Sequence record: DRR723986_576 | DNA length: 64,000 nt | Strand: one strand, 5' to 3' | Shown: positions 15,578 through 41,645 of the stretch, in pieces | Numbering within the stretch: the stretch's first letter is position 1 | Layout of the letters: every line of letters starts with the position of its first letter | Notes under the pieces: generated by a model | What the model saw: only the letters and a program-made list of their open reading frames with translations | Told to the model about the DNA's origin: nothing | Database searches by the model: none | Program-made: the position numbers and the translations under genes

Positions 15578-15608
15578 CGTATTTCCTTTCTTTTACTACC
15601 GAAGTCCA

Positions 15609-19707: not shown

Positions 19708-19976
19708 CGCACTTCCCCCTCCGTAAAGTGAACCGCTTTATCGACGGGCGGCCGACATAGCGACAGCATCACCCGCTGGGAAAAAATAGTCACCGCCAGT
19801 GCACTGCCTACAGCCACCGCTAAGTGATGCAGGCTAAACGCCCGGTTGTCTTCAGCAATAAACAGGCGCAGGGCATCAAAACAGGGCCAGATCACCAGCA
19901 AAACATAAGCCCCCATAGCAATGGCGATTTTGCTCAGCGTTTGCGGGGACGGCGCAGCAGACATTTTATTATTCAT
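19704..19976 (-). CDS. Small hypothetical membrane protein (2 TM)
   Basis: Two hydrophobic segments; stop overlaps the TBDR start (ATGA); start uncertain. Confidence 0.6.
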   Translation of the reverse strand: MNNKMSAAPSPQTLSKIAIAMGAYVLLVIWPCFDALRLFIAEDNRAFSLHHLAVAVGSALAVTIFSQRVMLSLCRPPVDKAVHFTEGEVR

Positions 19977-19992
19977 TATCAAGTCGCTCGTT

Positions 19993-20529
19993 TTAAACGG
20001 GTTTAACAACCGCGAGGTAAAGAACCAATAAGCCGGTGACTGAAATTACCGGCGTACTCACTACTAAGAACAACCAATGATGGGCGATGGCCTGTTCGTA
20101 GCTCAGGGCGACATCCCCCTGCCCCGACACGCGAATAGCGCGCTTGTTACCACCGAAATGCGACAACCAATAATCCATGGCCTCAATAGGCAGAAACACC
20201 AGCACCACGATGCACAACTTTAGGCTAAGCCAGAAATGTGCCAGCCCCCAGGGGCCAGCCGTCAGCAGCAACAAACCACTTAGCAGCAATAGCGGAAAAG
20301 CCACGTGCTCCAGTACCACGCCCTGATCAAAGCGCTCCATGGCAATATTGCGCTGACGCAGCAAGCGCTCGTCGTCCGGCGCGCGCTGCCAGGCCTTAAT
20401 CGCCGGCAGCAGGTAATTGATATAGGCCACTGATGTGCTGGCCAACCAGATCATCGCACAGGCCACATGGAAAAATTTTATTTGCAGATAGTAGGGCACC
20501 AGCGCTGCAGATAATTGCTCAACAAACAT
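19993..20529 (-). CDS. Hypothetical 4-TM membrane protein (DUF2269-like)
   Basis: IKFFHV.. N-terminal helix and ..LAVVKPV C-terminus typical of DUF2269/CopD-like proteins. Confidence 0.7.
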   Translation of the reverse strand: MFVEQLSAALVPYYLQIKFFHVACAMIWLASTSVAYINYLLPAIKAWQRAPDDERLLRQRNIAMERFDQGVVLEHVAFPLLLLSGLLLLTAGPWGLAHFWLSLKLCIVVLVFLPIEAMDYWLSHFGGNKRAIRVSGQGDVALSYEQAIAHHWLFLVVSTPVISVTGLLVLYLAVVKPV

Positions 20530-20572: not shown

Positions 20573-20588
20573 CATACCATACCGTATG
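20573..20588. promoter_or_regulatory. Putative operator of adjacent TetR (CATAC-N6-GTATG)
   Basis: Inverted repeat catac catacc gtatg in the divergent intergenic region. Confidence 0.5.
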
Positions 20589-20603
20589 GTACGGAAATAA
20601 TAT

Positions 20604-20620
20604 TGTCAATATATTTGACT
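20604..20620. promoter_or_regulatory. Shared palindromic operator copy 1 (TGTCAA-N5-TTGACT)
   Basis: tgtcaa tatat ttgact; motif recurs at 27674, 29507, 34476 and 34577. Confidence 0.7.
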
Positions 20621-20634
20621 AAACTAGGTGATGC

Positions 20635-21201
20635 ATGGGCGACCCGCAGCCACAAAAAAGCCGCAAATCAAAAACGCAGTTTATTCACGCCGCACTGGAA
20701 ATACTGGCCGATGAGGGCAACGTGAAAGCGCTGACCATAGACAGCCTATGCCAGCAGCTGGGTGTTTCTAAGGGGAGCTTTTACTGGCACTTCAAAGGGC
20801 GGGCGCAACTGATCGAGGCGCTGGTGGCGTTTTGGGCCGACGAGTTTCAGCAGAGCATTCATCAGCGCATTCGCCAAAGTGCCCACGACAAACCCGAGCG
20901 CGCGTTTGAAGAGCTAATCGGCTTCTGGCTGAGCAGTAATTTCTCGCGCCTGGATCAAGTCATGCGCAATTGGGCGCGCGAAGAAGACGCCGTCGCCGCG
21001 GCCGTGCACCATGCCGACCAACTGCTAATGAACTTTGTCGCGCAGCTGTTTGTCGCCATGGGCAATGACGAGATCGAAGCCCATCACCGAGCACGCTTAT
21101 TAATCGCAGTGGGTATCGCTGAACCACAAATCCAGCACCTGCCACACGCCGGTAGTGCCGACGAGGCAGCGCGCTGGGTCGCCACCAAACTACTCCGCTA
21201 G
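20635..21201 (+). CDS. TetR/AcrR family regulator
   Basis: LGVSKGSFYWHFKGR HTH. Confidence 0.9.
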   Translation: MGDPQPQKSRKSKTQFIHAALEILADEGNVKALTIDSLCQQLGVSKGSFYWHFKGRAQLIEALVAFWADEFQQSIHQRIRQSAHDKPERAFEELIGFWLSSNFSRLDQVMRNWAREEDAVAAAVHHADQLLMNFVAQLFVAMGNDEIEAHHRARLLIAVGIAEPQIQHLPHAGSADEAARWVATKLLR

Positions 21202-22551
21202 CGGTATAAAACGCAGCGGCAGGCCATCGGTTGGGAAGGAAATCGGCACCGGGTTGTAGGGCATTTCGTAGCCGGGCTGCGCTTCAATACGGTAGCGCTT
21301 TAACAAATGAAACAACACAATCTTCACCTGAATCTCCGCAAAATTCAGGCCGATACATTTGTGGCTGCCACCACCGAAAGGTAACCATTGGTAGAAATGC
21401 TTTTTGTGCTCGGCCCGCTCTGGCGAGAAACGCATTGGGTCAAAGCGCGTGGGCTCACTCCACCACTCTTCCAGGTAGTGAGTCATCAGCGGCGAAATGC
21501 CAATAGAGGTATTGGCTGGAATACGGTAACCGAATATCTCCGTTTCACGCACCGTGCGCCGTGGCACCACCGCCACCGGCGGGTACATACGCAGCGTTTC
21601 CTGCATCACAAAGCCCGCCAGGGAAAACTCAGCAAGCTGGTCAAAGCTCGGCGAGTCGCTATCGATACCGGCAAATTCTTCGCGCAATTTCTCCTGCCAT
21701 TCAGGATTTTTGGCCAATAAATATATTGTTGAACACAGCGTGCTGGTGGTCGTGTCATGGGCCGCGAACAGCAGAAAGATTATATGGTCGCGAACGGCTT
21801 TGTCATTGAGGAAGTTGCCATCTTCATCTTTGGCGTGACAAAACTGCGAGAAGAAATCATCGGTTTCCTGCTCGCGTTTTTTCTGAATATGTTGCTCGAC
21901 AAAACGTTCCAGTGTTTTGCGGCCATCCAAACCTTTTTTCCACGTTGTTCCGGGAATCGGCAACTTCACAACGGCCAGCGACGCCTCCATAGCATGAACA
22001 AAAGCGCGGTTAATTTTTTGCGCGTCGTCACCAATATCGACGCCCATAAATACCTGGGCCGCCACATCGAGTAAGATCGCTTTAATCTCGTCTTTAAACA
22101 TGACTTGCTGCCCAGCAGGCAGCTGCGCAAGGCGCTGATCGATCATCGGGTTCATGGTATCGACATACTTTGCCAGTACATCTTTTTTAAACGCCGACTG
22201 CAGTATTCGCCGATTGAGTTTATGGTCGGCGAAGTCCATCAGCATCAGACCGTTGGGAAACAAACGATCCAGGAAAGGATCCCAGGCACGCTTACTGGAA
22301 AATAGTTTTTCGCTGTCTTTCAGCAATATTTCATTGGCTTCTGGCCCGACCATTACCACCGTTTTTTGCAGCAGCGCATTGCTGCGAAAAATTCGACCAT
22401 ACTTGCGATACTTTTCCATCGACATGGCAAAGTAGTCGGTAAGAAACGGTATGGTGTCACCCAAAATTGGCAGGGCCCCGCGATCTCCCGGCAGGTGATC
22501 GATCTCAGAAGTGGGTTTTCGCGCTGCCTTGATGGTTTCTGCTGTCGACAT
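21190..22551 (-). CDS. Cytochrome P450 (CYP136-like)
   Basis: I-helix FAAHDTTT, ETLR (ExxR), heme motif FGGGSHKCIG. Confidence 0.93.
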   Translation of the reverse strand: MSTAETIKAARKPTSEIDHLPGDRGALPILGDTIPFLTDYFAMSMEKYRKYGRIFRSNALLQKTVVMVGPEANEILLKDSEKLFSSKRAWDPFLDRLFPNGLMLMDFADHKLNRRILQSAFKKDVLAKYVDTMNPMIDQRLAQLPAGQQVMFKDEIKAILLDVAAQVFMGVDIGDDAQKINRAFVHAMEASLAVVKLPIPGTTWKKGLDGRKTLERFVEQHIQKKREQETDDFFSQFCHAKDEDGNFLNDKAVRDHIIFLLFAAHDTTTSTLCSTIYLLAKNPEWQEKLREEFAGIDSDSPSFDQLAEFSLAGFVMQETLRMYPPVAVVPRRTVRETEIFGYRIPANTSIGISPLMTHYLEEWWSEPTRFDPMRFSPERAEHKKHFYQWLPFGGGSHKCIGLNFAEIQVKIVLFHLLKRYRIEAQPGYEMPYNPVPISFPTDGLPLRFIPLAE

Positions 22552-22563
22552 GTCCTAACTCCC

Positions 22564-24123
22564 TTACGCCATTTCGCTGTTGTCTAGCCGGTATTGCTCG
22601 GCAAACATTTCGCGGAGTTCTTTCTTTAAAATTTTTCCCGATGGATTGCGCGGCAGTCCTGGAACAAAACAGATATGTTTAGGTACTTTAAATGCCGCCA
22701 GTTTTCCTTCGCAGAACGTTTTCATTTCCGCAAGGCTGATTTCACACTCCGGCGCCGAGACTACAACGGCAAGGGGCACTTCCCCCCACCGCGAGTCGGG
22801 CACACCAATAATCGCCACGTCGGAAATTTCCGGGTGCGACATCAATAGATTTTCAATTTCCGCGGGATAAATATTTTCGCCACCGGAGATAATCATGTCT
22901 TTCACGCGGTCTTGAATAAACACATAGCCGTGCTCATCGATAATGCCCGCATCGCCGGTATGCAGCCAGCCATCAACAATCGTATCGGCGGTCGCTTCGG
23001 GTCGTTGCCAGTAGCCCTGCATAATCTGCGGCCCCTTGGCGAGTATCTCCCCTACTTCGCCCGGCGCGCATTCACCACCGTCGGTATCGACCACTTTTAG
23101 CGCAGTAGCAAACACCGCGCGACCGCAGGATCGCAGCAGGCCCGGCTCACCCGCCAAAGCACGGCGGTGATCGTCAGCAGTGAGAAACGTCAGGCCCATC
23201 GTCGCCTCGGTTTGCCCGTAACCCTGTACAAAATCGCAGCCAAATATGCGCATACAATCCTTCAGCAAACTTTCAGAAATGGGCGACCCGCCGTAGTTAA
23301 TGGTTTTCAGCGCAGAGAAATCATAGCGCTCAATATTCTCGACCATTGCCAGCGAAAACTGCAGCATTACCGGAATCACTGCCACGGTGGTGATCTTCTC
23401 GTTGGCCAATGTTTCGATCATGCCAACCGGGTCGTAGTCGCGGTGAATCACCATCGCCGAGCCGTATATCACACCGAGCATCGCCCCCACCAAACCCACC
23501 GCATGGAAGGTGGGCGCAATCACCAAGGCCTTGTCGTTTTCGGCCGGCCACACGCCGGTACTCATTGACGCCTGATAACTATTCAGCAGTACATTGCTAT
23601 GGCTAATTAACACGCCCTTTGGGCGGCCGGTGGTGCCGCTGGTGTACATATGAAACAGAATATCGTCGCCTGCGATATCCACCTCGGCGGCGGCATTCGC
23701 CCCTTTGCACCAGTTTTTAAGGTCGTCTTGCCCGGCTGTCGGCGCCAGGTAAATGCGCGGCAGTGCCTGCATTACAGGCCCGCACAGACTGTCGAACTCT
23801 GCGTCGAGAAACAGCGCGACCAGCTGCGCGTCGGCGGCGATATATTCCAGCTCGCCTTCGCTCAGTCGGTAATTGAGGCCCACCGCAATCGCACCAATGC
23901 GCGCACAGGCGAGGAATACACACAAATTGTCGACAGAGTTTTTTGCCAGTATGCCCACGCGCTGGCCTTTGCGAATGCCCTGGCCTTGCATGGCGCCGGC
24001 TATGGTACCCACGTAGTCCCAGGCCTGGCCAAAGGTTAGTGTCTGGCTGTCGTCTTGCAGCATCATGGCGTCGCTGCGACGCTGCGCATGAAAGGCGTGG
24101 TACTGATTAAAATTAGTAAACAT
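22564..24123 (-). CDS. Acyl-CoA synthetase (long-chain fatty acid-CoA ligase family)
   Basis: YTSGTTGRPKG, GYGQTE, WLHTGD, DRVKDMIISGGENIYP. Confidence 0.93.
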   Translation of the reverse strand: MFTNFNQYHAFHAQRRSDAMMLQDDSQTLTFGQAWDYVGTIAGAMQGQGIRKGQRVGILAKNSVDNLCVFLACARIGAIAVGLNYRLSEGELEYIAADAQLVALFLDAEFDSLCGPVMQALPRIYLAPTAGQDDLKNWCKGANAAAEVDIAGDDILFHMYTSGTTGRPKGVLISHSNVLLNSYQASMSTGVWPAENDKALVIAPTFHAVGLVGAMLGVIYGSAMVIHRDYDPVGMIETLANEKITTVAVIPVMLQFSLAMVENIERYDFSALKTINYGGSPISESLLKDCMRIFGCDFVQGYGQTEATMGLTFLTADDHRRALAGEPGLLRSCGRAVFATALKVVDTDGGECAPGEVGEILAKGPQIMQGYWQRPEATADTIVDGWLHTGDAGIIDEHGYVFIQDRVKDMIISGGENIYPAEIENLLMSHPEISDVAIIGVPDSRWGEVPLAVVVSAPECEISLAEMKTFCEGKLAAFKVPKHICFVPGLPRNPSGKILKKELREMFAEQYRLDNSEMA

Positions 24124-24166
24124 GGCTGTCGCCTCGCCGTTGCTTTATAGGAGGAGTACCGCGCGA

Positions 24167-24937
24167 TTAGCGCGGCTGCATACGAATGGCACCGTCGAGA
24201 CGAATACACTCGCCGTTCATGTATTCATTCTCAGCGATCATCACCGACAGGTGAGCAATTTCCTCTGGGCGACCCAAACGCTGCGGGTTAACCACACTGG
24301 CTTCCAGCGACTTGTATGCCACCTCCGACAGAGTCTCAAACAGCGGCGTATGAATAAGACCCGGCACAATGGTGTTTACACGAATGCCGTAACTGGCAAG
24401 GTCGCGCGCCATTGGCAAGGTCATGCCAACTACACCACCCTTTGATGCACTGTAGGCCACTTGCCCTACCTGCCCCTCGTAGGCGGCAACCGAAGCGGTA
24501 TTAATAATGACGCCACGGGCGTTGTCCTGGTACGGCGCCGCGTCAGCCATCGCTTTTGCAGCGAGGCGGGCAACATTAAAGGTGCCAATCAAATTCACAT
24601 CGATAACGGTTTTATAGGCATCGAGCGGAAACACGCCCTGCTTGCCAAGGGTTTTAATCGCGTTACCAATCCCGGCGTAGTTGTTACAGATATGCAGGCC
24701 ACCAAACTTTTTAACCAGGGCATCGATGGCGGAGGCCACCGACTGTTCATCCGCGACGTTGACGTTGTAAAACGCCGCGCGGTCGCTGCCCAACTCTTCC
24801 ACCAAGGCGTTACCGCGAACCTCGTTCATATCGAAGATGGCAACCCTGGCGCCTTTGGCAGCGTAGGCGCGCACGGTCGCCTCTCCCAAGCCCGACGCGC
24901 CGCCAGTAACCAGTGCCACTTTGTTATTCAGATCCAT
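24167..24937 (-). CDS. SDR, 3-hydroxyacyl-CoA dehydrogenase type II-like
   Basis: TGGASGLG, AYSASKGG, IRLDGAIRMQPR; AGGAG RBS before ATG24937. Confidence 0.9.
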   Translation of the reverse strand: MDLNNKVALVTGGASGLGEATVRAYAAKGARVAIFDMNEVRGNALVEELGSDRAAFYNVNVADEQSVASAIDALVKKFGGLHICNNYAGIGNAIKTLGKQGVFPLDAYKTVIDVNLIGTFNVARLAAKAMADAAPYQDNARGVIINTASVAAYEGQVGQVAYSASKGGVVGMTLPMARDLASYGIRVNTIVPGLIHTPLFETLSEVAYKSLEASVVNPQRLGRPEEIAHLSVMIAENEYMNGECIRLDGAIRMQPR

Positions 24938-24984
24938 GTTGTTCTCCTTATTGTTGTATTGCTTGTTAAAACACATTCAGCTCA

Positions 24985-25368
24985 TTACCGAATGCCCGCA
25001 CCTGATGGCGGCACCGGTTGATATTTCGGGTTGTCGATAGCCAGTTTGGCGTCGCTGATTTTTTGCAACATTTCCAGCAACGCCGGGTCGCGGTAAGGCG
25101 CGTCGCTGCCCTCAATGCGGTCGCGAAGCTGTTCACGCAGTGTTGCCAACTCGCCCTGTTGGCCGAGAAATTCAGCGAGCAAGGCTTGCTCGTCGCGCTG
25201 CTGACTTCCCCCTGCATTCAACTCGCGACTGACAATACCAAGGCCATTGATTGCCACCCGCAATTGATACGACAGGGCTGGCGCGTCCACGGCGGGCAGT
25301 ATCGACTGTTTTAAAAACTCACTAACCGCTTCCAGTAATTGCTCGGCACTGGGATGCTCAATAGCCAT
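24985..25368 (-). CDS. DUF6285-like small protein (LvaB-like kinase partner)
   Basis: PSAEQLLEAVSEFL..RVAINGLGIV..KLAIDNPKY; directly after the APH kinase. Confidence 0.75.
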   Translation of the reverse strand: MAIEHPSAEQLLEAVSEFLKQSILPAVDAPALSYQLRVAINGLGIVSRELNAGGSQQRDEQALLAEFLGQQGELATLREQLRDRIEGSDAPYRDPALLEMLQKISDAKLAIDNPKYQPVPPSGAGIR

Positions 25369-25370
25369 GA

Positions 25371-26357
25371 TTAACGCTCCTTCAGCAGCCGAATAAGGTC
25401 GGCCTCACACTCAGACAAGCGCCGGCCGATCACCGCCCGCTCAACCGAACGCTGCTTACCCTGCAAATGAATGGCGCTCTGATACAGGCAGATCACCCCC
25501 CATTTCAGCACGCCAAACACCTCCCAATAGGCCAGCTCCCGCTCGGTAACATCGATCTCGCGGCCGCGGTTATAGGTTTCCAACAGGGCACGTTTGTCAC
25601 CAAAGCCGCCCACTGCTTTGTCGACGTGGCCAAAACGCCAGGAATTTACACACAGCCAGCCGAGGTCTTCTATCGGGTTGCCGATATGCGCCAACTCCCA
25701 ATCCAGCACCCCGCTCAGGCCCTGCTCGTCCACCAGGATATTGCCGTTGCGAAAATCGCCGTGCACGATGGCGGCTTGGCGCGGCGTTGGCGGGGTGTCC
25801 AATAAGTAGCGAAAGGCCAAATCAAACACCGGCAAACACTGACCGAATTCCCGATAGCGTTCCCGGTAACGCAGCACGTCGTCTTCTACCGACACTGACT
25901 CCAGCATAGCGGCGCGACGCGGATCAATATTGTGCAAAGACGCCAAAACAGCGCCGCACTGACCAGCCAGTAGCTCACGGGCAGTGGCAAAACGCGCGTC
26001 AGTAAGAATGCGCTTAGGTAGTGCCTCGCCTGCGAGCCGCCGCATCACAAAGCCGGCACCGCTCACGTCACTGGCCGGTATGTGAGCGATCACTTCCGGC
26101 ACCGGCAAGCCCTGCTGATACACCAACTCCAGCAAACTGGCTTCGGTGGGTTTGGTCAGGGCATTTTCAAACTGGTGTTCATCGTCGCCACAACGCAAGA
26201 TCAGCGGCTGCAATGTGCCCTCAGCCCAGGCATCAAACGCGGTGGTTTGCGACGCTGCGCCGCCCGTTAATTGCTTAACATTGTCGATGGTCACACTGGT
26301 CTGCCAATGCCCGGACAGGCATTCTTCCAGCAAGCGGACTAAGGCCATATCCGTCAT
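25371..26357 (-). CDS. APH-family phosphotransferase (LvaA / ACAD10-11 kinase domain-like)
   Basis: GGAASQT, HGDFRNGN, LDWELAHIGNPIEDLGW. Confidence 0.88.
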   Translation of the reverse strand: MTDMALVRLLEECLSGHWQTSVTIDNVKQLTGGAASQTTAFDAWAEGTLQPLILRCGDDEHQFENALTKPTEASLLELVYQQGLPVPEVIAHIPASDVSGAGFVMRRLAGEALPKRILTDARFATARELLAGQCGAVLASLHNIDPRRAAMLESVSVEDDVLRYRERYREFGQCLPVFDLAFRYLLDTPPTPRQAAIVHGDFRNGNILVDEQGLSGVLDWELAHIGNPIEDLGWLCVNSWRFGHVDKAVGGFGDKRALLETYNRGREIDVTERELAYWEVFGVLKWGVICLYQSAIHLQGKQRSVERAVIGRRLSECEADLIRLLKER

Positions 26358-27559
26358 GACGCAAACTCGGCATCGCGCTGGCCAAAGTCCCAGCCCTGAT
26401 CTTTTTCATAGGCTCGCAGCAGTTGCTTCGCCACCGACTGAACATGCACCTCGTCCGGGCCGTCATAGAGCCGCGCTTCGCGGGCATGGCGATACATGCG
26501 GCTTAGCGGAGTATCGTCGGTAAGGCCTTCGGCCCCATAAACCTGAATGGCGCGGTCAATTACCCGGTGCAACATGCCGGCACCGGCCACTTTAATTGCG
26601 CCAATTTCCACTCTGGCAATATCGCCTGCGTCGATGCGCTTGGCAGCGTGCAAAGTTAGCTGGCGGCAGGCCTGAATATCCTGGTAACTGTTAAACACAT
26701 GCTGCTGCATTAACTGTTTATCGGCGAGGCCAGAGCCAAACGCACTGCGCGACAGCAAGCGCTTACACATTAGGTCGTAGGCGCGCTGGGCCTGACCGAG
26801 CCAGCGCATGCAATGGAAGATTCGCCCGGGGCCGAGGCGCCGCTGGGCGATTTTAAAACCCGCGCCGCGCTCGCCTAACAGGTTGTCGGCAGGCACTTTC
26901 ACATTCACATATTCGGCCTCAAAGTGGCCGCCCGCGATGCCCAGCACCGGCGTATCCCGAAGGATGGAATAGCCCGGCGTACCCATTGGCACAATAATCA
27001 TGCTGAATGCGCTGTGGTCGGGCGCCTGTGTTTCGGTGCGGCACATTACCGTGGTGTAGGCGGCAATATCGGCGCCGGTGGTAAACCACTTGCGGCCATT
27101 AATATGCCAATAACCGTCTTTTAATTCGGCGGTGGTCTGCAGCTGCGTGGGGTCGGAGCTGGAAATGCCTGGCTCGGTCATCGCAAAACTGGGGTTGATG
27201 TCACCGGCAACCAGCGGCAGTAAATAACGCTCGCGCTGACTGTCTGACGCGTAGGCATTCAGCATGATGGAGTCCTGCAAGGAATACGTGCCGAAAATGC
27301 GCTGAGCGAATTCCGAGCGGCCGATAACCTCATTCAGGTAGGCGTATTCCAAAAACGGCAAGCCCATACCGCCGATCTCTTCGGGGTGGCCAAAGGCCCA
27401 TAAATGCTTTGCCTTGGCCTTCTTAACCAGCGCGGCCAATTCCGCCTCAGCAAGGGTTTTATCGGCAGATTGCAATAGCGGCTCGCGCGGATAAATCTCC
27501 TGCTCCAAGAAATCCACCAACTCGCTACGTATCTGCATCCAGTCTCGAGACATCGCCAT
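26354..27559 (-). CDS. Acyl-CoA dehydrogenase (ACAD10/11, LvaC-like)
   Basis: FAMTEP, INGRKWFTTGA, AQRRLGPGRIFHCMR, RLYDGPDEVH. Confidence 0.9.
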   Translation of the reverse strand: MAMSRDWMQIRSELVDFLEQEIYPREPLLQSADKTLAEAELAALVKKAKAKHLWAFGHPEEIGGMGLPFLEYAYLNEVIGRSEFAQRIFGTYSLQDSIMLNAYASDSQRERYLLPLVAGDINPSFAMTEPGISSSDPTQLQTTAELKDGYWHINGRKWFTTGADIAAYTTVMCRTETQAPDHSAFSMIIVPMGTPGYSILRDTPVLGIAGGHFEAEYVNVKVPADNLLGERGAGFKIAQRRLGPGRIFHCMRWLGQAQRAYDLMCKRLLSRSAFGSGLADKQLMQQHVFNSYQDIQACRQLTLHAAKRIDAGDIARVEIGAIKVAGAGMLHRVIDRAIQVYGAEGLTDDTPLSRMYRHAREARLYDGPDEVHVQSVAKQLLRAYEKDQGWDFGQRDAEFAS

Positions 27560-27673
27560 ATTCTTCTCTTTATCTGCGCTGTTAGGGAGCCACTGCACAA
27601 GCCGCCGAACCCTCAAGAGGTATATTGCAGAGGCCTGCTAGTTCTTGCTTATACAATCAACATGATTCATTAT

Positions 27674-27690
27674 TGTCAAGTATATTGACT
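27674..27690. promoter_or_regulatory. Shared palindromic operator copy 2
   Basis: tgtcaa gtata ttgact between the divergent ACAD and VOC genes. Confidence 0.75.
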
Positions 27691-27731
27691 TATTGCAATC
27701 AGCTAGCCAATACTAAAAACGATAATTAAAA

Positions 27732-28319
27732 ATGGGAGAACCACAGGCGATGAACAAACCACTTCAGGCCCTGGGAAACATTCATCACGCCGCCTATCGC
27801 TGTGTAGATGCCGAGCAAACACGCTGGTTTTATGAAGACCTTCTCGGCTTAACACTCGCCGCTGCCTTTGAAGAAGACATCGACTTTGGTGAAAACCTCG
27901 GCCGCAATCGCCACTTCTTGCATATCTTTTTTGAAATGGCAGACGGCAACTACATCGCCTTTTTTGACGAACCCGGTATTTCCAAGCCCGAGCATTTTGG
28001 CCGCAAAGATAGCTTCGACATGCACCTGGCATTCGAAACTGAATCGCTGGATAGCCTGCGCGAATGGCAGGACTATTTAAACGCCGCCGGCAAAACCTGC
28101 CTTGGCCCCATCGACCACGGCTTTGTTCACTCGGTATATATGTACGACCCCAATGGCATTCAGGTGGAAATCACCTGCCGCGCAGAAAATAGCGACGCCA
28201 TTATGAAAGACGAAGCCGCCAGCGCGCGTGATGCATTGAATGCCTGGACGGCAAAAACACGCAAACAAAAAGAAGAAGTTTTCGGCGCAGAGCGGCTGGA
28301 TAAACGCGGCCGGGGCTAA
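27732..28319 (+). CDS. VOC/glyoxalase family protein
   Basis: HHAAYRC, HLAFE, SVYMYDPNGIQVEI; start 27732 or 27750. Confidence 0.88.
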   Translation: MGEPQAMNKPLQALGNIHHAAYRCVDAEQTRWFYEDLLGLTLAAAFEEDIDFGENLGRNRHFLHIFFEMADGNYIAFFDEPGISKPEHFGRKDSFDMHLAFETESLDSLREWQDYLNAAGKTCLGPIDHGFVHSVYMYDPNGIQVEITCRAENSDAIMKDEAASARDALNAWTAKTRKQKEEVFGAERLDKRGRG

Positions 28320-28325
28320 GTTTGT

Positions 28326-28345
28326 GGCGCGGCACTTACCGCGCC
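28326..28345. terminator. Hairpin between convergent genes
   Basis: ggcgcgg cactta ccgcgcc. Confidence 0.45.
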
Positions 28346-28355
28346 CTTACCTGCA

Positions 28356-28922
28356 TTAGGCCAAACGCTGGCACTGCTCAACAAAACGCGCAGCAAACAG
28401 TTTGGCAGTTTCAAGATCGCCGGGCAGGGGCGCCTCATCGGCGCTGGCATCGGCGGGCGACTGCGCCATCAAACCACTAAACGCCCCCAGGTAATTAACG
28501 TCGTTTCGCTGCGCCGCTTTGGTATTGGCCGCCGGCAACGCGGTGCCCACCCACAACATACCGTGCTGCATCGCAAAGGTATGCAGATAGGCCAGCGTTG
28601 AAGACTTGTCACCGTTCATCGATGCGGAGTTGGTAAAACCACCGGCCAATTTGTCCTTCCAGTTTTGCATCATCCAGCGGCCACTGGAGGCATCAGCCAC
28701 CCGCTTAAACTGCCAGGACACGCTGCCCATATACGTGGGCGAGCCGAATAAAACACCGTCGCTGTCATCCAAGGCCTGCCAGTGCGCGTCGCTGATCTCA
28801 CCGTCTTGGGAAATCGCAATCGCCGTTACTTCGGCCTGCTCGGCAAGGCTTTCCACTATGGTCTCTGCAAGACGCTGGGTATGGCCGTAGCCACTGTGGA
28901 ACAACACACAAATCTTAGTCAT
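28356..28922 (-). CDS. Flavodoxin-like / WrbA-type NAD(P)H-dependent FMN protein
   Basis: HSGYGHT FMN loop, GSPTYMGS, GGFTNSASMNGDK. Confidence 0.88.
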   Translation of the reverse strand: MTKICVLFHSGYGHTQRLAETIVESLAEQAEVTAIAISQDGEISDAHWQALDDSDGVLFGSPTYMGSVSWQFKRVADASSGRWMMQNWKDKLAGGFTNSASMNGDKSSTLAYLHTFAMQHGMLWVGTALPAANTKAAQRNDVNYLGAFSGLMAQSPADASADEAPLPGDLETAKLFAARFVEQCQRLA

Positions 28923-28958
28923 TAACCGCTCCTATTATTATTTTCGGTAAAAGGGTGA

Positions 28959-29417
28959 TTATTTTTCCGGCTCAACGATGGCGATCGGCCCCCAGCTTCT
29001 GTTCAGCGCTTGCTTCAAACCATTGAAGGCGGTTTTGCCGATTCGCTTGCGAAGCTCCTCCTCAATACCCAATAAAATTGCCTGGGCATCGCGGCGAATA
29101 TCATCCGCCTCGGCGCTGAACTTCACCATTTTCGCGCGCTTGTCTTTGGGGTCGGGTACAAGCTCCAAAATGTTTTCGTCCTTTAAACCCTGCAGCAACT
29201 GGTGGATCGCCTGACGGCTCACACCGAGGTTGCGCGCCATATCAGCAGGGCGGTTAATGCCCGCGGTTACGCTCAACATAATCATCGAACGGGTGCGGTT
29301 CATCCGCTCCCAACCGGCCGCAGCCAAACTCGCCTGCAAGCTTTCGTCCACCCAGTATAGGGCGTAGGCAAGTGTGCCGATCAAATAGCCCTGATCCTGC
29401 TCAACCAATTTCTTCAT
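28959..29417 (-). CDS. MarR family regulator
   Basis: RPADMARNLGVSRQAIHQLL HTH, PDPKDKRAK wing. Confidence 0.9.
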   Translation of the reverse strand: MKKLVEQDQGYLIGTLAYALYWVDESLQASLAAAGWERMNRTRSMIMLSVTAGINRPADMARNLGVSRQAIHQLLQGLKDENILELVPDPKDKRAKMVKFSAEADDIRRDAQAILLGIEEELRKRIGKTAFNGLKQALNRSWGPIAIVEPEK

Positions 29418-29506
29418 AAGTTCATTTCACTTTCTCTGTGGTGCCAGCGATTGTAGGGCAAACTGAAAAAAAACACCCTACCAGCATGCCATAGCGTTTA
29501 TTTTTT

Positions 29507-29523
29507 TGTAAACTATATTGACA
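29507..29523. promoter_or_regulatory. Shared palindromic operator copy 3
   Basis: tgtaaa ctata ttgaca between marR and the hydrolase gene. Confidence 0.7.
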
Positions 29524-29561
29524 ATAAATCAGAGCACAGCCTCGCCAAAAGGATAAATATA

Positions 29562-30734
29562 ATGAGCGAATCGACGAGAAGCTACGAGCGTATTCCCTAT
29601 TTAATTTTCTATCAGGATAAAAGCCCGTTTAAGGAAACCTACGGCGGCCCGCTGGATTTTGGCGCCCTTAAATCCCACCATCTCAAGCCCAAACAGCCGC
29701 GCTGCAACAACGTCATTCTGTTTATGCACCCCGTTGGCGGCGGCGAATACCTGCCGATGGTGGTCGCCATGGCCAAGGCTGGTTACCCGGTCATTTACTG
29801 CCAAAGCCGCTACTCCGGTAACGACAGCGCACTGATTATGGAAAAAGTCGCCATCGATATGGGCAACTGCATCCGCCATGCCAAAGAAGAGCTGGGTTAC
29901 GACAAAGTGATTCTTGCGGCGTGGAGCGGCGGCGGCTCACTGTCGCTGTTTTATCAAAGCCAGGCGGAAAACCCGACCATTACCCACACCCCCGCGGGCG
30001 ACTCGGTAGACCTCACCATTCAAGGGCTGATTCCGGCCGACGGCGTGATGATTCTTGCCGCCCATGTCAGCCGCGCCCATACCCTTACCGAATGGATGGA
30101 CGCCTCAATTCTCGATGAAGCCAACCCGGACAACAAAGACCCAGGCCTGGACCTCTACGACCCGGCCAACCCCAATCAGCCGCCCTATAGCGAGGAGTTC
30201 CTCAACCGCTATCGCGCCGCGCAAATTGCCCGCAACAGAAAGATTACCGCCTGGGTAAAAGACAAGCTGCAATACCTGAAAGACAGCGACCGACCCAACG
30301 ACGAATTTGGCTTTGTGGTACACGGCACCATGGCCGACCCGCGCTGGCTGGACCCCAGCGTCGACCCCAACGACCGACAGGAAAATTGGTGCTACCTCGG
30401 CGACCCCAAAGTCGTGAACAATGGCCCCGTTGGGCTAGCCCGATTCTGTACCCTGCGAAGCTGGTTGTCACAGTGGAGCTACGACGACTCCAATGCCGAC
30501 GGCCAAGCCTGCGCAGCGAAAATCAGCGTGCCAATTCTCGTCATTGGCAACACCGCCGACGATGCCTGCACCCCCAGCCACACTCACCGCTTGTATAACG
30601 CCATTGCCCACGACGACAAAGAACTGTACGAAGTGGAGGGCGCCACTCACTACTACTTCGGCCAACCCGATAAACTCGACGACGCCATATCGCGCTGCGA
30701 TGCGTGGTTGCAGAAAAAAGGCTTTGCGGACTGA
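29562..30734 (+). CDS. Alpha/beta hydrolase fold protein
   Basis: AWSGGGS nucleophile elbow, ADDAC Asp, GATHYY His. Confidence 0.85.
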   Translation: MSESTRSYERIPYLIFYQDKSPFKETYGGPLDFGALKSHHLKPKQPRCNNVILFMHPVGGGEYLPMVVAMAKAGYPVIYCQSRYSGNDSALIMEKVAIDMGNCIRHAKEELGYDKVILAAWSGGGSLSLFYQSQAENPTITHTPAGDSVDLTIQGLIPADGVMILAAHVSRAHTLTEWMDASILDEANPDNKDPGLDLYDPANPNQPPYSEEFLNRYRAAQIARNRKITAWVKDKLQYLKDSDRPNDEFGFVVHGTMADPRWLDPSVDPNDRQENWCYLGDPKVVNNGPVGLARFCTLRSWLSQWSYDDSNADGQACAAKISVPILVIGNTADDACTPSHTHRLYNAIAHDDKELYEVEGATHYYFGQPDKLDDAISRCDAWLQKKGFAD

Positions 30735-30752
30735 GTGCTGTAAGGAAGGACA

Positions 30753-30774
30753 TGCCGGGCTTGGTCGCCCGGCA
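30753..30774. terminator. Hairpin between convergent genes
   Basis: tgccgggc ttggtc gcccggca. Confidence 0.5.
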
Positions 30775-30785
30775 CGCGAAGCCGC

Positions 30786-31925
30786 TTACCGGCTGGGATT
30801 AATCAGGTATTTCTTGCCGGTGGCCTGCTGGCTGTACTCAGCGACCACATCGGCCTGCAATACATCCAGCAGCGACACTTCATCGCTGTAGTGGCTGGCA
30901 AAGGTGGTGTGTAGCTCATCGGCCACGCGCTGGCGCAATTCGCCGGCGCGCTCCGGCCCGACCTTGGCAATAAACGGCGTCAACAGCCAGGCATTAATGC
31001 CCCAACTAAAGCCGAAGTTGCGATGGACAATGGTCGGCGACAAATCCAGGCTGCCGTAGATGTAGAGCTGCTTGAAAGTATCGGAGCCATACGGCCCCGG
31101 CAGGGCAACCTCTTTCAGCGCCGCTTTTTCCATGCAGGTGAGAATACGGCTACCCAGCTCACCGCCGCCAGTGGCGTCAAACGCCAGGTAGGCTCCCGTC
31201 TCTTCAATCGCCCGGGTCAGGTCGCTCATAAAGCTGTCGTCGCTGGAATTGCAGACGTATTTGGCGCCCTGGGATTTCAGCAACTCAACCTGCTCGGGCT
31301 TACGCACAATATTAATGAGATCAATGCCATCTTTCTGGCAGACACGGTTAAGCATCTGCCCAAGATTGGACGCCGCCGCCGTGTGGATCAGCGCCTTGAA
31401 ACCTTCGCGACGCATTGTCTCAACCATACCCAGTGCCGTCAGGGGGTTCACAAAGCAGGACGCGCCGTCGCGGGCCGAGGTGCCCTCATTCAATGGCAGA
31501 CACTGCATCACATTCACTTTGCGGTACTGGCAGTAAAGCGCGCCGTCCATCACCGCCACGGTTTTACCCAACAGTGCCTGCGCAGCGGCACTGGCACCGG
31601 CCTTGACCACGGTGCCCGCCCCTTCATTTCCCGCCGCCAGCGGCTTGCCAATTCGCGGTTTAACGCGGCCCTCCAGGCCAGGGCGCAGTTTGGCGGTGTA
31701 CACGGTATCGACACCACTGCCCGTGGTTTTGCCGGTGCTGACATCGGCGGGGGCAATCAGTGTGGCCTGATCCGAGGGGTTGATGGGGGTCGCCTCAATG
31801 CGCACCACCACCTCATCGTCGCCTGGCTCGGGGATCGGCGAGGATTTCAGTATCAGTTTGAGGTAGCCGTCGTCGGTGACCAGCGAGCGCAGTTGCAGGC
31901 CGGTATCGGGAAGCGTGTCGTGCAT
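30786..31925 (-). CDS. MDR superfamily zinc-independent oxidoreductase (enoyl/alkenal reductase-like)
   Basis: ATPINPSD, GNEGAGTV, FVNPLTA, AAASNLGQML. Confidence 0.85.
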   Translation of the reverse strand: MHDTLPDTGLQLRSLVTDDGYLKLILKSSPIPEPGDDEVVVRIEATPINPSDQATLIAPADVSTGKTTGSGVDTVYTAKLRPGLEGRVKPRIGKPLAAGNEGAGTVVKAGASAAAQALLGKTVAVMDGALYCQYRKVNVMQCLPLNEGTSARDGASCFVNPLTALGMVETMRREGFKALIHTAAASNLGQMLNRVCQKDGIDLINIVRKPEQVELLKSQGAKYVCNSSDDSFMSDLTRAIEETGAYLAFDATGGGELGSRILTCMEKAALKEVALPGPYGSDTFKQLYIYGSLDLSPTIVHRNFGFSWGINAWLLTPFIAKVGPERAGELRQRVADELHTTFASHYSDEVSLLDVLQADVVAEYSQQATGKKYLINPSR

Positions 31926-32006
31926 AGCAAATGCCCTTCTGATTATTGGACAGCTAGCCTAGCACTTTCCGCCCCCCAAACTCACCTGTGCGTAAAACCC
32001 GTTCGC

Positions 32007-34394
32007 TCACCACTGATAATTCAGCGAGGCAAAAATTTTCCGCATCGACTTCTGCCGGGTGTTGTAAGTGCCGGGGAAAAACACGGTATCGAGCACTTGC
32101 CCCAGCACTTCTTCGTCGGTGAGGTTGCTGCCGCCAACGGTAATTGCCCAGCCGGAATCCAACGATGCCAGGCTCACCCGCGCCGACACGGTGGTGTAGC
32201 CCGGCGAAAAGGTGTTTTTATCCAGGTCGCCGTCGGTGTATTGATCGCCTTGGTAAAGAATATCGACGCTGGTACTCATGGCTAAGCCGAAGACCGGGAA
32301 CTCCAATGTTGGAGTAAAGCTGGCGGTTTCTTTGGGGGCGAAGGAGATGCGTCGACCGCCAAGGTCTTGCTGGGCGTCGACACCTTCATTAATCGGCGCT
32401 GGCGCGGCGGGGTAACTGTCGTAGCGCGCATCCAACAGGCCTACAGAACCGGCAAGGCGCAGAAACGGCATTGGCGTGATCCACATAACGTCCATTTCAA
32501 GGCCGTCAGAGGTGGCGGTAGCGGCGTTTTTTACATCGAAGAAGGCACCGTTGAAGGCCAGCACTTGCAGATTTTCAAACTGAGTTTGGTACACGGCGAG
32601 GTTAAAACGCAGGGTGTTATCCAAGAAGCTGCCTTTTAAACCGGCCTCGACGGTGACGGCTTTTTCGGGCTCGAAATTGAGGTCTTCACCACCGAAGGAC
32701 GAGGCATTAAAGCCACCACTTTTGTAACCGCGGGCGTAGCTGATAAAGACATTGGTGTCTTCGTTCAAATAGTACTGAAGCGACAGCTTGGGCGACAAAT
32801 CGCTCTCTTCGCGCTCGATCCCTTCCTCCTGATATTCCTCGGCGCTTAGCGCGGTGCCCATCAAACACGGCAGCCCCAGGTTGCCAGTGCGGCAGCGCGA
32901 GGTGCCCGAGGCGTCGGCAGTTTTGGTTTCGCGGCTGTAGCGCAGCCCGGGAGTGAGTACCCACTTATCGGTGATGTACCAGCTGAATTGGGCAAAGGCC
33001 GCGTAGGCTTCCACATCCAGAAAGTAGTCCAGCAGGTAGCTGTCGTCGCCAATCAAGGTGGAACCCAGACCGGAGATCAAGCCCAAGCCCGCCAGGTTTA
33101 AACCGCCGAGCAAGCCGCCTGAGCCGGCATTGGTATTGCCACTGATCAGTTGCAGGGCGTCGTCGGTGGTGAGGTAGGCCAGCAGGTCGTCGCCGGCGGT
33201 AATTTGCGTTTGTTGTTCAAATTCCGAATGCAGAGCGTAAATACCGGCAACCAGATTAACGCCCTCGCCCAACCCGAAAAGGCTCTCGCTGCTGGCAGTA
33301 AACCGAAGCTCCAGCGACTGCTGATTGTAGTCCGAGGTCACGGCTAGTTTGGCAAGGTCGGCAGGGGAAGCGTCGAGGTCGACAAGGCTGTCGATGTATA
33401 ACTCGCTGTCGGCAACAATTAATGTCAACGCGCTGTTCTGCAATCCGGCCACGTCGCCCAGCTGCCACTCACTTAGCAATGACAGGCTGTCGGATGCTTT
33501 TTCGATAAAGCCCGGCACATTGTAGGAGCTGCGAAAGTCGTAGGGATTGTCTTCAATATTCGGGTCGTAGTTTTCAAGAAAGGTGCGGGTGTCGTCGTCC
33601 AGTTTGAAGATTTGCAGTCCCCAGTAATTGGCCATGGTTTCCGATTGGTAGGCATTCAGCTCCATATGCAGCGAATCGCTGGGGTCGAAAAAGATCTTCA
33701 AACGCTGGGCATTTTGTTCGTGTTGATCGTCGCGGCGCTGCAAAAACTGGTTATACAGGTCACCCTCTTTGTCGCGGTCCATCGCCGAAAAGCGCAGCGA
33801 AAGGTGGTCGCCCACGCCACCGGCTACGGCCGCTTCCAGGTAGCGCTCATCGGCGTCGTTTTCCTGCCATTGCAGTTTCCCGGAGAAGTCGTCGGTGGGG
33901 TCAGCCGAGCTAACATTGAATACGCCCGCCACGGTGTTTTTTCCAAACAGGGTGCCCTGCGGCCCGCGCAGGACTTCTATACGGGCAATATCGAACATGG
34001 CTTCGCTAAAGTATGAAGGGCGGTTGTAAAACACCTCGTCCTGCACGAAACCCACCGAGCTTTCGAAAGCGGCATTCAGCGGGTTGGAGCCAAAACCGCG
34101 AATATTTACCTGGGTAAGTGCCGGATCGGTATCGGAGGAAAAGCGCACATTGGGCATATACGGGGCGAGGTCTTGCAGGTTAACCGCGCCCACTTCTTTC
34201 ATAAATTCGCCGCTCACGGCGGTGAGCGAGATGGGCACATCCTGAGACGATTGCTCGACTTTCTGCGCGCTAACGATGACCTCCTCCAACACCCGGCGCT
34301 CTTTTACCGGCGCGGAAAACGCGTTGTGAGCCGTCAGTATTAGTGCAATGGCTACGCAGTGAGGACGTAACGATGTACTGCTGTTGATAAACAT
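32007..34394 (-). CDS. TonB-dependent receptor
   Basis: LEEVIVSAQK, RGPQGTLFGKN, GYKSGGFN, C-terminal YQW. Confidence 0.92.
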   Translation of the reverse strand: MFINSSTSLRPHCVAIALILTAHNAFSAPVKERRVLEEVIVSAQKVEQSSQDVPISLTAVSGEFMKEVGAVNLQDLAPYMPNVRFSSDTDPALTQVNIRGFGSNPLNAAFESSVGFVQDEVFYNRPSYFSEAMFDIARIEVLRGPQGTLFGKNTVAGVFNVSSADPTDDFSGKLQWQENDADERYLEAAVAGGVGDHLSLRFSAMDRDKEGDLYNQFLQRRDDQHEQNAQRLKIFFDPSDSLHMELNAYQSETMANYWGLQIFKLDDDTRTFLENYDPNIEDNPYDFRSSYNVPGFIEKASDSLSLLSEWQLGDVAGLQNSALTLIVADSELYIDSLVDLDASPADLAKLAVTSDYNQQSLELRFTASSESLFGLGEGVNLVAGIYALHSEFEQQTQITAGDDLLAYLTTDDALQLISGNTNAGSGGLLGGLNLAGLGLISGLGSTLIGDDSYLLDYFLDVEAYAAFAQFSWYITDKWVLTPGLRYSRETKTADASGTSRCRTGNLGLPCLMGTALSAEEYQEEGIEREESDLSPKLSLQYYLNEDTNVFISYARGYKSGGFNASSFGGEDLNFEPEKAVTVEAGLKGSFLDNTLRFNLAVYQTQFENLQVLAFNGAFFDVKNAATATSDGLEMDVMWITPMPFLRLAGSVGLLDARYDSYPAAPAPINEGVDAQQDLGGRRISFAPKETASFTPTLEFPVFGLAMSTSVDILYQGDQYTDGDLDKNTFSPGYTTVSARVSLASLDSGWAITVGGSNLTDEEVLGQVLDTVFFPGTYNTRQKSMRKIFASLNYQW

Positions 34395-34475
34395 AGGCAC
34401 CCATCTTTTCTATTATTATTGTTGTTGCGTTTGAGCCATCCGGTGCAGTGAAGCGCCTTGCACGGCCCGAATTAA

Positions 34476-34492
34476 TGTCAACTAAGTTTACA
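34476..34492. promoter_or_regulatory. Shared palindromic operator copy 4
   Basis: tgtcaa ctaag tttaca upstream of the TBDR. Confidence 0.7.
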
Positions 34493-34576
34493 TTATTAGC
34501 GGCTTTCTCTCGGCGCGTCAACTCGCCAATATGAGAATTAGCAAAATCTTGGGGGTAGACAATCGCCTCAGCATAA

Positions 34577-34593
34577 TGTCAATATTATTGACA
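34577..34593. promoter_or_regulatory. Shared palindromic operator copy 5 (perfect half-sites)
   Basis: tgtcaa tatta ttgaca upstream of the GST operon. Confidence 0.78.
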
Positions 34594-34614: not shown

Positions 34615-35346
34615 ATGATCGACTTACATACGGTGCCAACCCCCAACGGCCACAAGATTTCTATTGCGCTGGAAGAGCTGGGCTTGGACTATCGCGTAAT
34701 TCCCTACGATATTAGCCAGGGCGACCAGTTTAGCCCCGAGCTATTGGCCTTAAACCCCAACAACAAGCTGCCGGTGATTGTCGATAACGATGCCGAAGGC
34801 GGGCCGATCACAGTGTTTGAAAGCGGCGCGATTCTGATTTACCTGGCAGAGAAAAGCGGCCAGCTGCTATCTCGCCAGCCCAGCCAGCGCTACGCCGAGC
34901 TGCAATGGCTGATGTTTCAAATGGCGGGCGTTGGGCCGCTGCAGGGTCAGGCCCACCACTTCGTGCGTTACGCTCGTGAAGAGCAGCCCTATTCCAAACA
35001 GCGCTACCTGCAGGAAAGCCTTCGCCAGTGCCGGGTGATTGAATCGCAGCTTAGCCAGCAGCACTATATCGCCGGAGAGCAATTCTCCGTTGCCGATATC
35101 GCACTGTGGCCGTGGCTGCGCGCCCTGCCACTGATTGGCATTCACCCCGAACAGACTTTTCCCGGTATTCATCGCTGGTTTAATGCGCTGGCAGAGCGAC
35201 CGGCCTTTCAGCGCGGTAAGGATGTCATCAACGGCTGGGTATATGACCTGCCGCCGAACTTCTATATGGAGCTGGACGATAAGACCTGGTCTTACTCCTT
35301 TGGCGAGGAGCAGTACAAGGAACGCGAACGGGGGCAGCAAGCGTGA
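34615..35346 (+). CDS. Glutathione S-transferase (YfcG/Nu class)
   Basis: TPNGHK, NPNNKLPVI, FESGAILIYLAEK. Confidence 0.9.
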   Translation: MIDLHTVPTPNGHKISIALEELGLDYRVIPYDISQGDQFSPELLALNPNNKLPVIVDNDAEGGPITVFESGAILIYLAEKSGQLLSRQPSQRYAELQWLMFQMAGVGPLQGQAHHFVRYAREEQPYSKQRYLQESLRQCRVIESQLSQQHYIAGEQFSVADIALWPWLRALPLIGIHPEQTFPGIHRWFNALAERPAFQRGKDVINGWVYDLPPNFYMELDDKTWSYSFGEEQYKERERGQQA

Positions 35347-39556: not shown

Positions 39557-39634
39557 AGGTTTGTATTCCTACTGTTTGAATTATTGGTCGAGCGCCCAGT
39601 TAACGGATGACGCCTAGTATTGTCAATCTAATTT

Positions 39635-41519: not shown

Positions 41520-41645
41520 TATTGTAATTAACTGCATGTCGACCCAAGTGGGGCGATATTATAGTCGCAGCAGCCCCCCTCTCGCCATGCGAATGACCGG
41601 CAAACACGCTATCATTGCGCCTTTTAAGGTAAATTCATTACTGCT

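Follow-up and report, generated by a model that had tools for sequence, protein, structure and literature searches.

The window analysed here, a stretch of 64,000 nucleotides from sequence record DRR723986_576, carries a block of catabolic genes whose divergent promoter regions share a 17-bp palindrome, TGT(C/A)AA-N5-TT(G/T)AC(A/T). An initial annotation had placed five copies, at 20604, 27674, 29507, 34476 and 34577, and had proposed that a MarR-family regulator encoded in the block controls about 22 otherwise heterogeneous genes as one pathway. All five copies were recovered. Each is intergenic, and together they occupy four divergent regions, between the DUF2269-like gene and tetR, the acyl-CoA dehydrogenase (ACAD) and VOC genes, marR and a hydrolase gene, and TonB-dependent receptor 2 (TBDR2) and GST genes, the last with two sites. 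The candidate operators and the regulator are:

20604..20620, no strand: candidate Operator 1, between the DUF2269-like gene and tetR
27674..27690, no strand: candidate Operator 2, ACAD/VOC divergent region
29507..29523, no strand: candidate Operator 3, marR/hydrolase divergent region, predicted to be autoregulatory
34476..34492, no strand: candidate Operator 4, on the TBDR2 side
34577..34593, no strand: candidate Operator 5, a perfect palindrome, 21 bp before the GST start
28959..29417, minus strand: MarR-family regulator (Pfam MarR_2, 31 bits, cut-off 27), recognition helix SRQAIHQ kept in the subfamily

The pattern gives eight strand matches in the window, representing five places, against 0.08 expected, and this number was reached in none of 100 shuffles. 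When TGTCAA-N5-TTGACA was searched with up to one mismatch, a spacer of 5 gave five matches and each of the 13 other spacers between 0 and 13 gave none. A position weight matrix built from 81 distinct site contexts in other loci scored the five sites at 30–35 bits and the next-best window position at 11.9 bits, a comparison that is partly circular as the training sites were picked by consensus. Two weak copies, at 39621 (11.9 bits) and at 6463 (inside an open reading frame, ORF), were not counted as sites. The former (39621–39637) has one perfect half-site, lies upstream of genes for a yciA-like thioesterase and SDR3, and is a possible low-affinity sixth site.

The nearest genome, G001 (3.4 Mb, 96% identical to the window over 19.9 kb), served as the genome-wide reference. 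Five of the six places matching the original pattern, and five of the seven found with up to one mismatch, fall inside this 14-kb block; of the matches outside it, two lie within long ORFs and one within a 100-codon frame. A reversed control pattern at up to one mismatch occurs at six places in the same genome. The signal consequently resides in the clustering and conservation of the sites and not in their genome-wide number.

Association of the palindrome with MarR

A MarR that is 100% identical, in the same gene order, is present in Neomelitea salexigens DSM 19753, and close orthologues occur in Spongiibacter, Zhongshania and Litorivivens; one locus (L041) comes from a cultured type strain with the block. 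The site that had been noted in the divergent promoter of marR itself is present at 29507 and recurs upstream of marR in 20 of 29 loci at up to two mismatches. The VOC/ACAD intergenic site is kept in all nine other named loci that hold this gene pair, and the tandem pair formed by Operators 4 and 5 is found between GST and TBDR2 in five loci (L049, L050, L141, L142, L149). A site with up to two mismatches accompanies tetR in 12 of 14 loci, also where the tetR unit is far from marR, as a regulon would predict.

MarR was found in 24 of the 40 genomes of the family that were compared. Two or more strict sites were counted by hand in 15 of these 24 and in none of the 16 MarR-negative genomes, and at least one in 20 of 24 versus 3 of 16. 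The LvaA-like kinase occurs in the same 24 genomes, the hydrolase in 22 of them, and the VOC protein in 20 of them and in one other. MarR, the hydrolase, VOC and the Lva genes thus make up the core of the regulon. Of 80 metagenome loci retrieved through VOC, 28 hold this MarR and 24 of these have a site, versus 11 of the 52 without it; for loci of at least 8 kb the numbers are 20 of 23 versus 3 of 21. The MarR-positive metagenome loci contain 54 sites at spacer 5 and at most one at any other spacer. Sites also lie upstream of MarR paralogues (38–50% identity) in other families (G054, G278 and, twice, G326). In a de novo dyad count, TCAA-N5-TTGA ranks first upstream of VOC (11/33), DUF2269-like (9/19) and ACAD (3/6) genes.

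Some results speak against the assignment. The strict pattern was tuned on MarR-positive loci and the 40 genomes are kin; the 80 metagenome loci were not dereplicated, two of them being near-copies of the window, and four of the 28 with MarR have no site. Upstream of marR homologues (35 after dereplication), the de novo dyad search found no enrichment of the motif (3/35; 2–3 in shuffles). By hand count about 15 of these 35 do have a site at up to two mismatches, marR itself usually has the asymmetric TAAA form of the site, and distant marR genes often lie inside operons; the dyad test upstream of marR is nevertheless a miss.

Taken with these reservations, the comparative evidence makes it very probable that the motif is an operator and that this MarR is its likeliest binder. 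The operator consensus WGTMAA-N5-TTKACW probably belongs to the MarR subfamily with the recognition helix [ST]RQA[IV]HQ. A PDB search gave four matches to MarR, the best with an E value of 3e-4, and no close relative among solved structures.

MarR paralogues with the helix SPQAINQ instead of SRQAIHQ (L036; L127:6460-7047; G002, G326) are accompanied by the half-site TATCAA instead of TGTCAA. This pairing, a possible case of protein–DNA co-variation, is known from two related loci only.

Promoter layout and a second palindrome

TTGACA is the -35 consensus, and the palindromes could be pairs of sigma-70 -35 boxes set back to back in divergent promoters, without a binder of their own, an explanation that the initial annotation had itself named as fatal to its proposal. 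A -10-like hexamer TAnnnT does stand 16–18 bp from one half-site at 38 of 106 sites, against 5–15 at shifted registers, so that the operator often overlaps a -35. However, only one of the five window sites has such a -10. Sites 20604 and 34577 lie 14 and 21 bp from the downstream start codon, and Operator 5 is too near the GST start to act as the -35 of that gene. Moreover, the spacer is fixed at 5, the motif is nearly absent from MarR-negative genomes, and sites also precede genes that are not divergent (L136, L153, L154). One half of the palindrome frequently doubles as a -35, which makes this objection true in part, while the operator reading stands; -35 boxes are rejected as the sole explanation and it is most improbable that no dedicated binder exists.

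A second palindrome, missed in the initial annotation, lies beside Operator 1:

20575..20591, no strand: candidate TetR operator, palindrome TACCATAC-C-GTATGGTA in the window, general form TACCATAC-N-GTATGGTA
20635..21201, plus strand: TetR-family regulator, predicted to control the leftward uptake unit

This type of palindrome is found upstream of tetR in 13 of 14 loci, and at a single place per genome in five of five genomes. An alternative is that the 17-bp motif is bound by TetR, or by a global regulator encoded elsewhere. The motif stands beside tetR in 12 of 14 loci, and tetR was found in 14 of the 40 family genomes, all of them MarR-positive, which makes the two regulators hard to separate there. 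On the other hand, tetR was not found in 10 of the 24 MarR-positive genomes, four of which (G003, G006, G008, G020) have 2–4 strict sites, and TetR has a palindrome of its own. TetR was rejected as the binder on these grounds. A global regulator would give many sites, whereas G001 has 6–7. We regard binding by either as very unlikely.

Read on the minus strand, site 20604 offers a TTGACA -35 in its left half, and 17 bp further on a TACGGT -10 lies inside the TetR palindrome. The leftward promoter may thus have its -35 covered by MarR and its -10 by TetR. With a TetR operator in the tetR/TBDR1 promoter, MarR would not be its sole control, and this unit is probably doubly repressed. The proposal of one MarR regulon is in this respect supported for the operator and for MarR as its likely binder, and abandoned for exclusive control of the tetR/TBDR1 unit. 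Within 20575–20620 and its counterparts, the MarR- and TetR-type palindromes are 25–29 bp apart in 11 of 12 orthologous promoters with both (23 or 28 bp in L063); their combination at one promoter is apparently a natural two-input switch.

Genes of the block

Two core genes suggest that the block opens an aromatic ring:

27732..28319, plus strand: VOC protein, candidate homogentisate-type (hydroquinone) ring-cleavage dioxygenase
29562..30734, plus strand: alpha/beta hydrolase (Ser122-Asp333-His363), candidate (methyl)maleylacetoacetate C-C hydrolase

The closest solved structure to the VOC protein is PDB 9U42 (E 4e-15, TM 0.84 by target, 30% identity; next match 2e-9), and its single-domain fold is likewise nearest to this entry. 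All 46 aligned sequences keep His19, His98 and Glu146, which correspond to His, His and Glu in the alignment with 9U42 and form a candidate metal triad. According to the accessible part of PMC13572102, which cites Seo et al. 2025, 9U42 is the glyoxalase-fold homogentisate 1,2-dioxygenase of Acinetobacter. The VOC protein therefore probably cleaves a hydroquinone ring.

Homogentisate derived from tyrosine is an unlikely substrate, because no HppD scored over the cut-off in any of the five genomes searched. By Pfam annotation the block has no hppD, maiA or fahA among its genes. The cupin HmgA_C domain was found in none of 28 genomes of the genus, with 3 weak matches among 40 in the family. FAA-hydrolase domains occur in five of five genomes and were not placed in a pathway; a search for maleate isomerase (PF17645) gave no matches, controls included, and is uninformative.

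The hydrolase has no close characterised relative (10–18% identity), and its family comprises 53 records on plasmids alone. A PDB sequence search gave weak matches, and ESM Atlas searches gave unnamed clusters. Fourteen annotated plasmid regions were viewed, 13 of them with the hydrolase. In 8 of these 13, from distant taxa, it lies within about 2 kb of a ring-cleavage dioxygenase-like gene, of the VOC type in six and an HmgA_N-like cupin in two, and neither maiA nor fahA is annotated in any of the 13. The 14th region has VOC and maiA without this hydrolase. The order is cupin, hydrolase, monooxygenase, 3-oxoacid CoA-transferase and leuD in Rhodococcus opacus PD630, and CoA-transferase, HMG-CoA lyase, leuC, leuD, VOC, regulator and hydrolase in Sphingobium TKS. 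On this evidence, it is about as likely as not that the hydrolase turns the ring-fission product into an alkyl-maleate plus a 3-oxo acid.

A second group of genes would act on side chains and on the products of ring cleavage:

22564..24123, minus strand: long-chain acyl-CoA ligase, over the NF004837 cut-off
24167..24937, minus strand: type II (HSD10-like) 3-hydroxyacyl-CoA dehydrogenase
24985..25368, minus strand: DUF6285 small protein (Pfam)
25371..26357, minus strand: LvaA-type APH kinase, HxDx4N motif, here HGDFRNGN
26354..27556, minus strand: LvaC/ACAD11-type phospho-eliminating acyl-CoA dehydrogenase, probable start 27556 (27616 by the ORF finder)
36135..37334, plus strand: family III CoA-transferase, best model succinyl-CoA:mesaconate CoA-transferase (306 bits, cut-off 700)
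37349..38254, plus strand: HMG-CoA-lyase-like retro-aldolase, candidate alkylmalyl-CoA lyase

The DUF6285 protein is a putative LvaB counterpart, and short-chain dehydrogenases (SDRs) of the HSD10 type accept 2-methyl-branched acyl-CoAs. The ACAD is closer to ACAD11 (E 1e-71) than to SCAD (1e-45) and keeps the equivalents of R626, P629, H634, R637 and the catalytic D753, five of five, with chain numbering offset by one. These residues are given as markers common to ACAD10/11 and LvaC in the ACAD10/11 preprint (PMC11342911, bioRxiv 10.1101/2024.01.09.574893).

Of the 27 places in the family with an orthologue of the CoA-transferase (70–98% identity), 14 have an extra leuD next to it and 11 have the operator, while none has both. 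The transferase and lyase would dispose of an alkylmalate, which as a tertiary alcohol is not open to oxidation; this in turn would point to a methylated ring. The CoA-transferase/leuD pair is also seen in the MarR-negative genomes G031, G035 and G039. Two loci (L157:8143-16122 and L158:7701-15615, from G026 and G010) combine leuC/leuD paralogues, CoA-transferase and HMG-CoA-lyase-like genes with an isochorismatase-family amidase and two PuuE-like deacetylases; one may speculate that they convert a cyclic imide through maleamate and alkylmaleate to alkylmalate, the substrates being alkylmaleimides from chlorophyll or haem breakdown. Finally, VOC/hydrolase loci without LvaC (L205, L213, L214, L235, L236) hold an APH kinase, an enolase paralogue, an HpcH- or HMGL-type lyase and a D-2-hydroxyacid dehydrogenase, possibly a second phosphorylate-and-eliminate route.

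The remaining features are:

17419..19707, minus strand: TonB-dependent receptor 1 (TBDR1; Pfam)
19704..20009, minus strand: 101-aa conserved ORF of no known family
19993..20529, minus strand: DUF2269/UPF0093-like membrane protein, repeatedly beside this MarR subfamily
21190..22551, minus strand: cytochrome P450, accessory member, best solved relatives CYP120A1, taxadiene hydroxylase and CYP51
28356..28922, minus strand: WrbA-like flavodoxin (NAD(P)H:quinone oxidoreductase family), below the curated cut-off
30786..31925, minus strand: MDR-family reductase, weak match to the PIG3 quinone oxidoreductase model, downstream of TBDR2
32007..34400, minus strand: TonB-dependent receptor 2 (Pfam)
34615..35346, plus strand: GST, YfcG/YghU-like
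35343..36104, plus strand: SDR

Pfam confirms the gene labels given previously, to which two overlooked small genes between site 20604 and TBDR1 have to be added, the DUF2269/UPF0093-like gene and the 101-aa ORF. DUF1800/1501 genes do not follow TBDR1 in any of the five relatives with enough flank (G005, G007, G009, G012, G026), so that about 20 of the 22 genes remain; neither DUF1800/1501 nor the P450 is core. The description of the genes as heterogeneous does not hold, since they fit a hydroquinone ring-cleavage route.

The DUF2269/UPF0093-like gene adjoins MarR homologues across families (L122, L127, L129, L132–L134, L136), twice together with a small cytochrome c gene. DUF3604 genes recur near this MarR, VOC or the operator (L125, L127, L138:3207-5149, L173, L201, L205, L219), and could encode a periplasmic hydrolase that acts upstream in this regulon. 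In the window, TRAP transporter genes dctP (13246–14388) and dctQM (39635–41537), 25 kb apart, flank the block and point towards it; G009 has the same TRAP flanks without DUF1800/1501. Four marine metatranscriptome runs, available as contigs, covered pieces of 12–19 of 30 bins and none of 15500–16827; contigs cannot show transcription or co-regulation, and this coverage was therefore not used as evidence.

Proposed pathway, known systems and candidate substrates

The sites, conservation, co-occurrence, folds and marker residues observed here lead us to propose, with reasonable rather than high confidence, that the block serves the inducible import and catabolism of an exogenous lipophilic methylated alkyl- or prenyl-hydroquinone under one MarR. 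A MarR dimer would act as the repressor at all four divergent regions, its own promoter among them, in many cases by occupying a -35, and would be released by a pathway intermediate, as expected from its family; the leftward uptake unit would need release of TetR too. The TBDRs would import the ring-methylated hydroquinone or quinone, whose tail would be activated and shortened by the CoA ligase, the HSD10-type dehydrogenase and general beta-oxidation; LvaA/B/C would take away a 4-hydroxy block. WrbA, MDR and GST could keep the ring as free hydroquinone, and VOC would open the resulting homogentisate analogue. Taking the place of MaiA and FahA, the hydrolase would then cleave the maleylacetoacetate analogue directly, to an alkyl-maleate plus a 3-oxo acid, and the CoA-transferase and lyase would cleave the alkylmalate to pyruvate and an acyl-CoA.

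Several observations weigh against this pathway. The VOC protein is only 30% identical to 9U42, and a catechol-cleaving L-DOPA dioxygenase ranks third among its matches. No VOC orthologue was found in G005, a genome that is 100% complete and keeps MarR, the sites, the hydrolase and the Lva genes. The structural neighbours of the hydrolase are esterases and lipases, fold searches having returned generic alpha/beta hydrolases only, and for the cupins of Rhodococcus the match to HmgA_N is weak, with none to an NCBIfam model at 1e-25. G001 lacks an extra LeuCD (2 Aconitase_C hits), so that no hydration gene could be placed there. The P450 is found at 63–65% identity in the MarR-negative genomes G013, G022 and G023 and does not track MarR. 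As a separate observation, G005 (L140, L141) also keeps the TetR unit and the GST–CoA-transferase–lyase genes, the VOC gene having been lost from between the operator and marR.

The same regulon could instead act on a phenolic lipid or alkyl-aromatic that is hydroxylated first (a long-chain alkylphenol, alkyltoluene, hydroxyphenyl-alkanoate or sulfated phenol), or its Lva module could act on a ring-derived 4-oxo acid. Family members are known as oil degraders; HsaA-like and 3-hydroxybenzoate-6-monooxygenase-like hydroxylases, sulfatases, DUF3604 and lactonases appear in distant loci, and maleylacetoacetate is itself, chemically, a 4-oxo-enoate. However, the block contains no flavin ring hydroxylase, the P450 does not follow the regulon, and the 3-oxoacid CoA-transferase and leuD beside the R. 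opacus hydrolase favour maleate and a 3-oxo acid as products. These alternatives, taken jointly, overlap with the hydroquinone pathway and differ from it upstream only; we consider them possible and clearly the less likely choice.

A different function, detoxification of quinones or electrophiles with the lipid genes being incidental, is suggested by comparison with MhqR. The available sections of PMC6798810 describe this MarR-type repressor of Bacillus subtilis and Staphylococcus aureus as responsive to methylhydroquinone, with a 9-9 bp inverted-repeat operator and a role in detoxification. It controls VOC ring-cleavage dioxygenases, an alpha/beta hydrolase and, in B. subtilis, quinone reductases, a make-up that WrbA, MDR, GST, VOC and the hydrolase mirror here by family assignment only. 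MarR paralogues also sit with DoxX, Flavodoxin_2, OYE, pirin and GST genes. In contrast to the 9-9 bp operator, the present one is of the form 6-N5-6. No MhqR entry is among the four PDB matches of the MarR of the block, and no direct alignment of the two regulators was made. Furthermore, two TonB receptors, a long-chain CoA ligase, LvaABC and the CoA-transferase and lyase point to import and CoA-dependent assimilation, and the LvaA-like kinase accompanies MarR in 24 of 24 genomes. A purely protective role seems unlikely.

The hydroquinone pathway we prefer shares individual parts with other systems. The VOC protein resembles 9U42 most closely in sequence and fold and has the candidate His/His/Glu triad. 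The Acinetobacter gene, however, lies with hppD, maiA and fahA for tyrosine (PMC13572102, accessible part), while here no HppD was found and the partner is the uncharacterised hydrolase. The APH kinase with HxDx4N, the ACAD with five markers, the DUF6285 gene and the CoA ligase are reminiscent of Pseudomonas putida lva and ACAD10/11 as described in the preprint on LvaC given above (PMC11342911, bioRxiv 10.1101/2024.01.09.574893). They differ in being joined to a ring-cleavage module and a MarR operator, and the adjacent SDR is HSD10-like; the P. putida proteins were compared by description only. Hydrolysis of the ring-fission product without isomerisation, and LeuCD-like hydration of (methyl)maleate, would be shared with the direct-hydrolysis gentisate route, to which HbzF and HbzIJ reportedly belong. 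That route uses maleylpyruvate hydrolase (EC 3.7.1.23) and maleate hydratase (EC 4.2.1.31), as given in the accessible parts of PMC12130555 and PMC8307300; here, a homogentisate-type VOC would act with an alpha/beta hydrolase, and alkylmalate is apparently removed through the CoA-transferase and lyase. A precedent for the proposed biology is the srg cluster, which in the part consulted of bioRxiv 10.1101/2023.05.26.542311 supports bacterial growth on the lipophilic benzoquinone sorgoleone with beta-oxidation of the tail. Identity with this cluster was rejected, as its row of flavin monooxygenase, two hydrolases and deaminase, as described there, is absent from the block.

As to the actual substrate, no candidate goes beyond a tentative suggestion. 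Algal prenylquinone lipids (tocopherols or tocopherylquinones, plastoquinone and related chromanols) are one such candidate, though a rather doubtful one. By our own carbon count tocopherylquinone would fit every module, and plastoquinone all but the Lva step. Shortening of the tocopherylquinone tail would lead to 4-hydroxy-4-methyl-6-aryl-hexanoate, a 4-hydroxy acid needing an Lva-type step, and after two further rounds the product would be exactly a methylated homogentisate. Opening of the ring, followed by direct hydrolysis, would then produce mono- or dimethylmaleate, whose hydration product is a tertiary alcohol that would need the CoA-transferase and lyase. Several findings weigh against this candidate. 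It would require Lva enzymes to act on tertiary alcohols, and the word 'tertiary' does not occur in the consulted text of PMC11342911. G001 has no additional LeuCD, and G005 has no VOC orthologue although the other genes are kept. Phenol hydroxylases, sulfatases and lactonases, present in distant loci, suggest that members of the subfamily start from several different substrates.

Titles and abstract beginnings in the literature searched, which left most subscription journals outside, contain no description of this motif with a MarR or of a MarR in these genera. On the same basis, no account was found of this system under homogentisate with glyoxalase, or of a bacterial pathway for the degradation of tocopherol, plastoquinone or ubiquinone. 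The block apparently represents a real MarR regulon undescribed so far. It links three modules not joined in the literature consulted, the glyoxalase-fold homogentisate dioxygenase described in 2025, the Lva/ACAD11 route and an alkylmalate CoA route.

With the operator as a guide, generic annotations that looked unconnected become a single unit open to testing, and scattered parts of the regulon can be searched for by this tag in marine Gammaproteobacteria. A widespread uncharacterised hydrolase family receives a specific, testable function. If the prenylquinone reading is true, the hydrolase would represent a family of maleylacetoacetate hydrolases, and the membrane protein of DUF2269 type would be a candidate chromanol oxidase. 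With vitamin E or plastoquinone as substrate, the regulon would constitute a microbial sink for abundant phytoplankton lipids.

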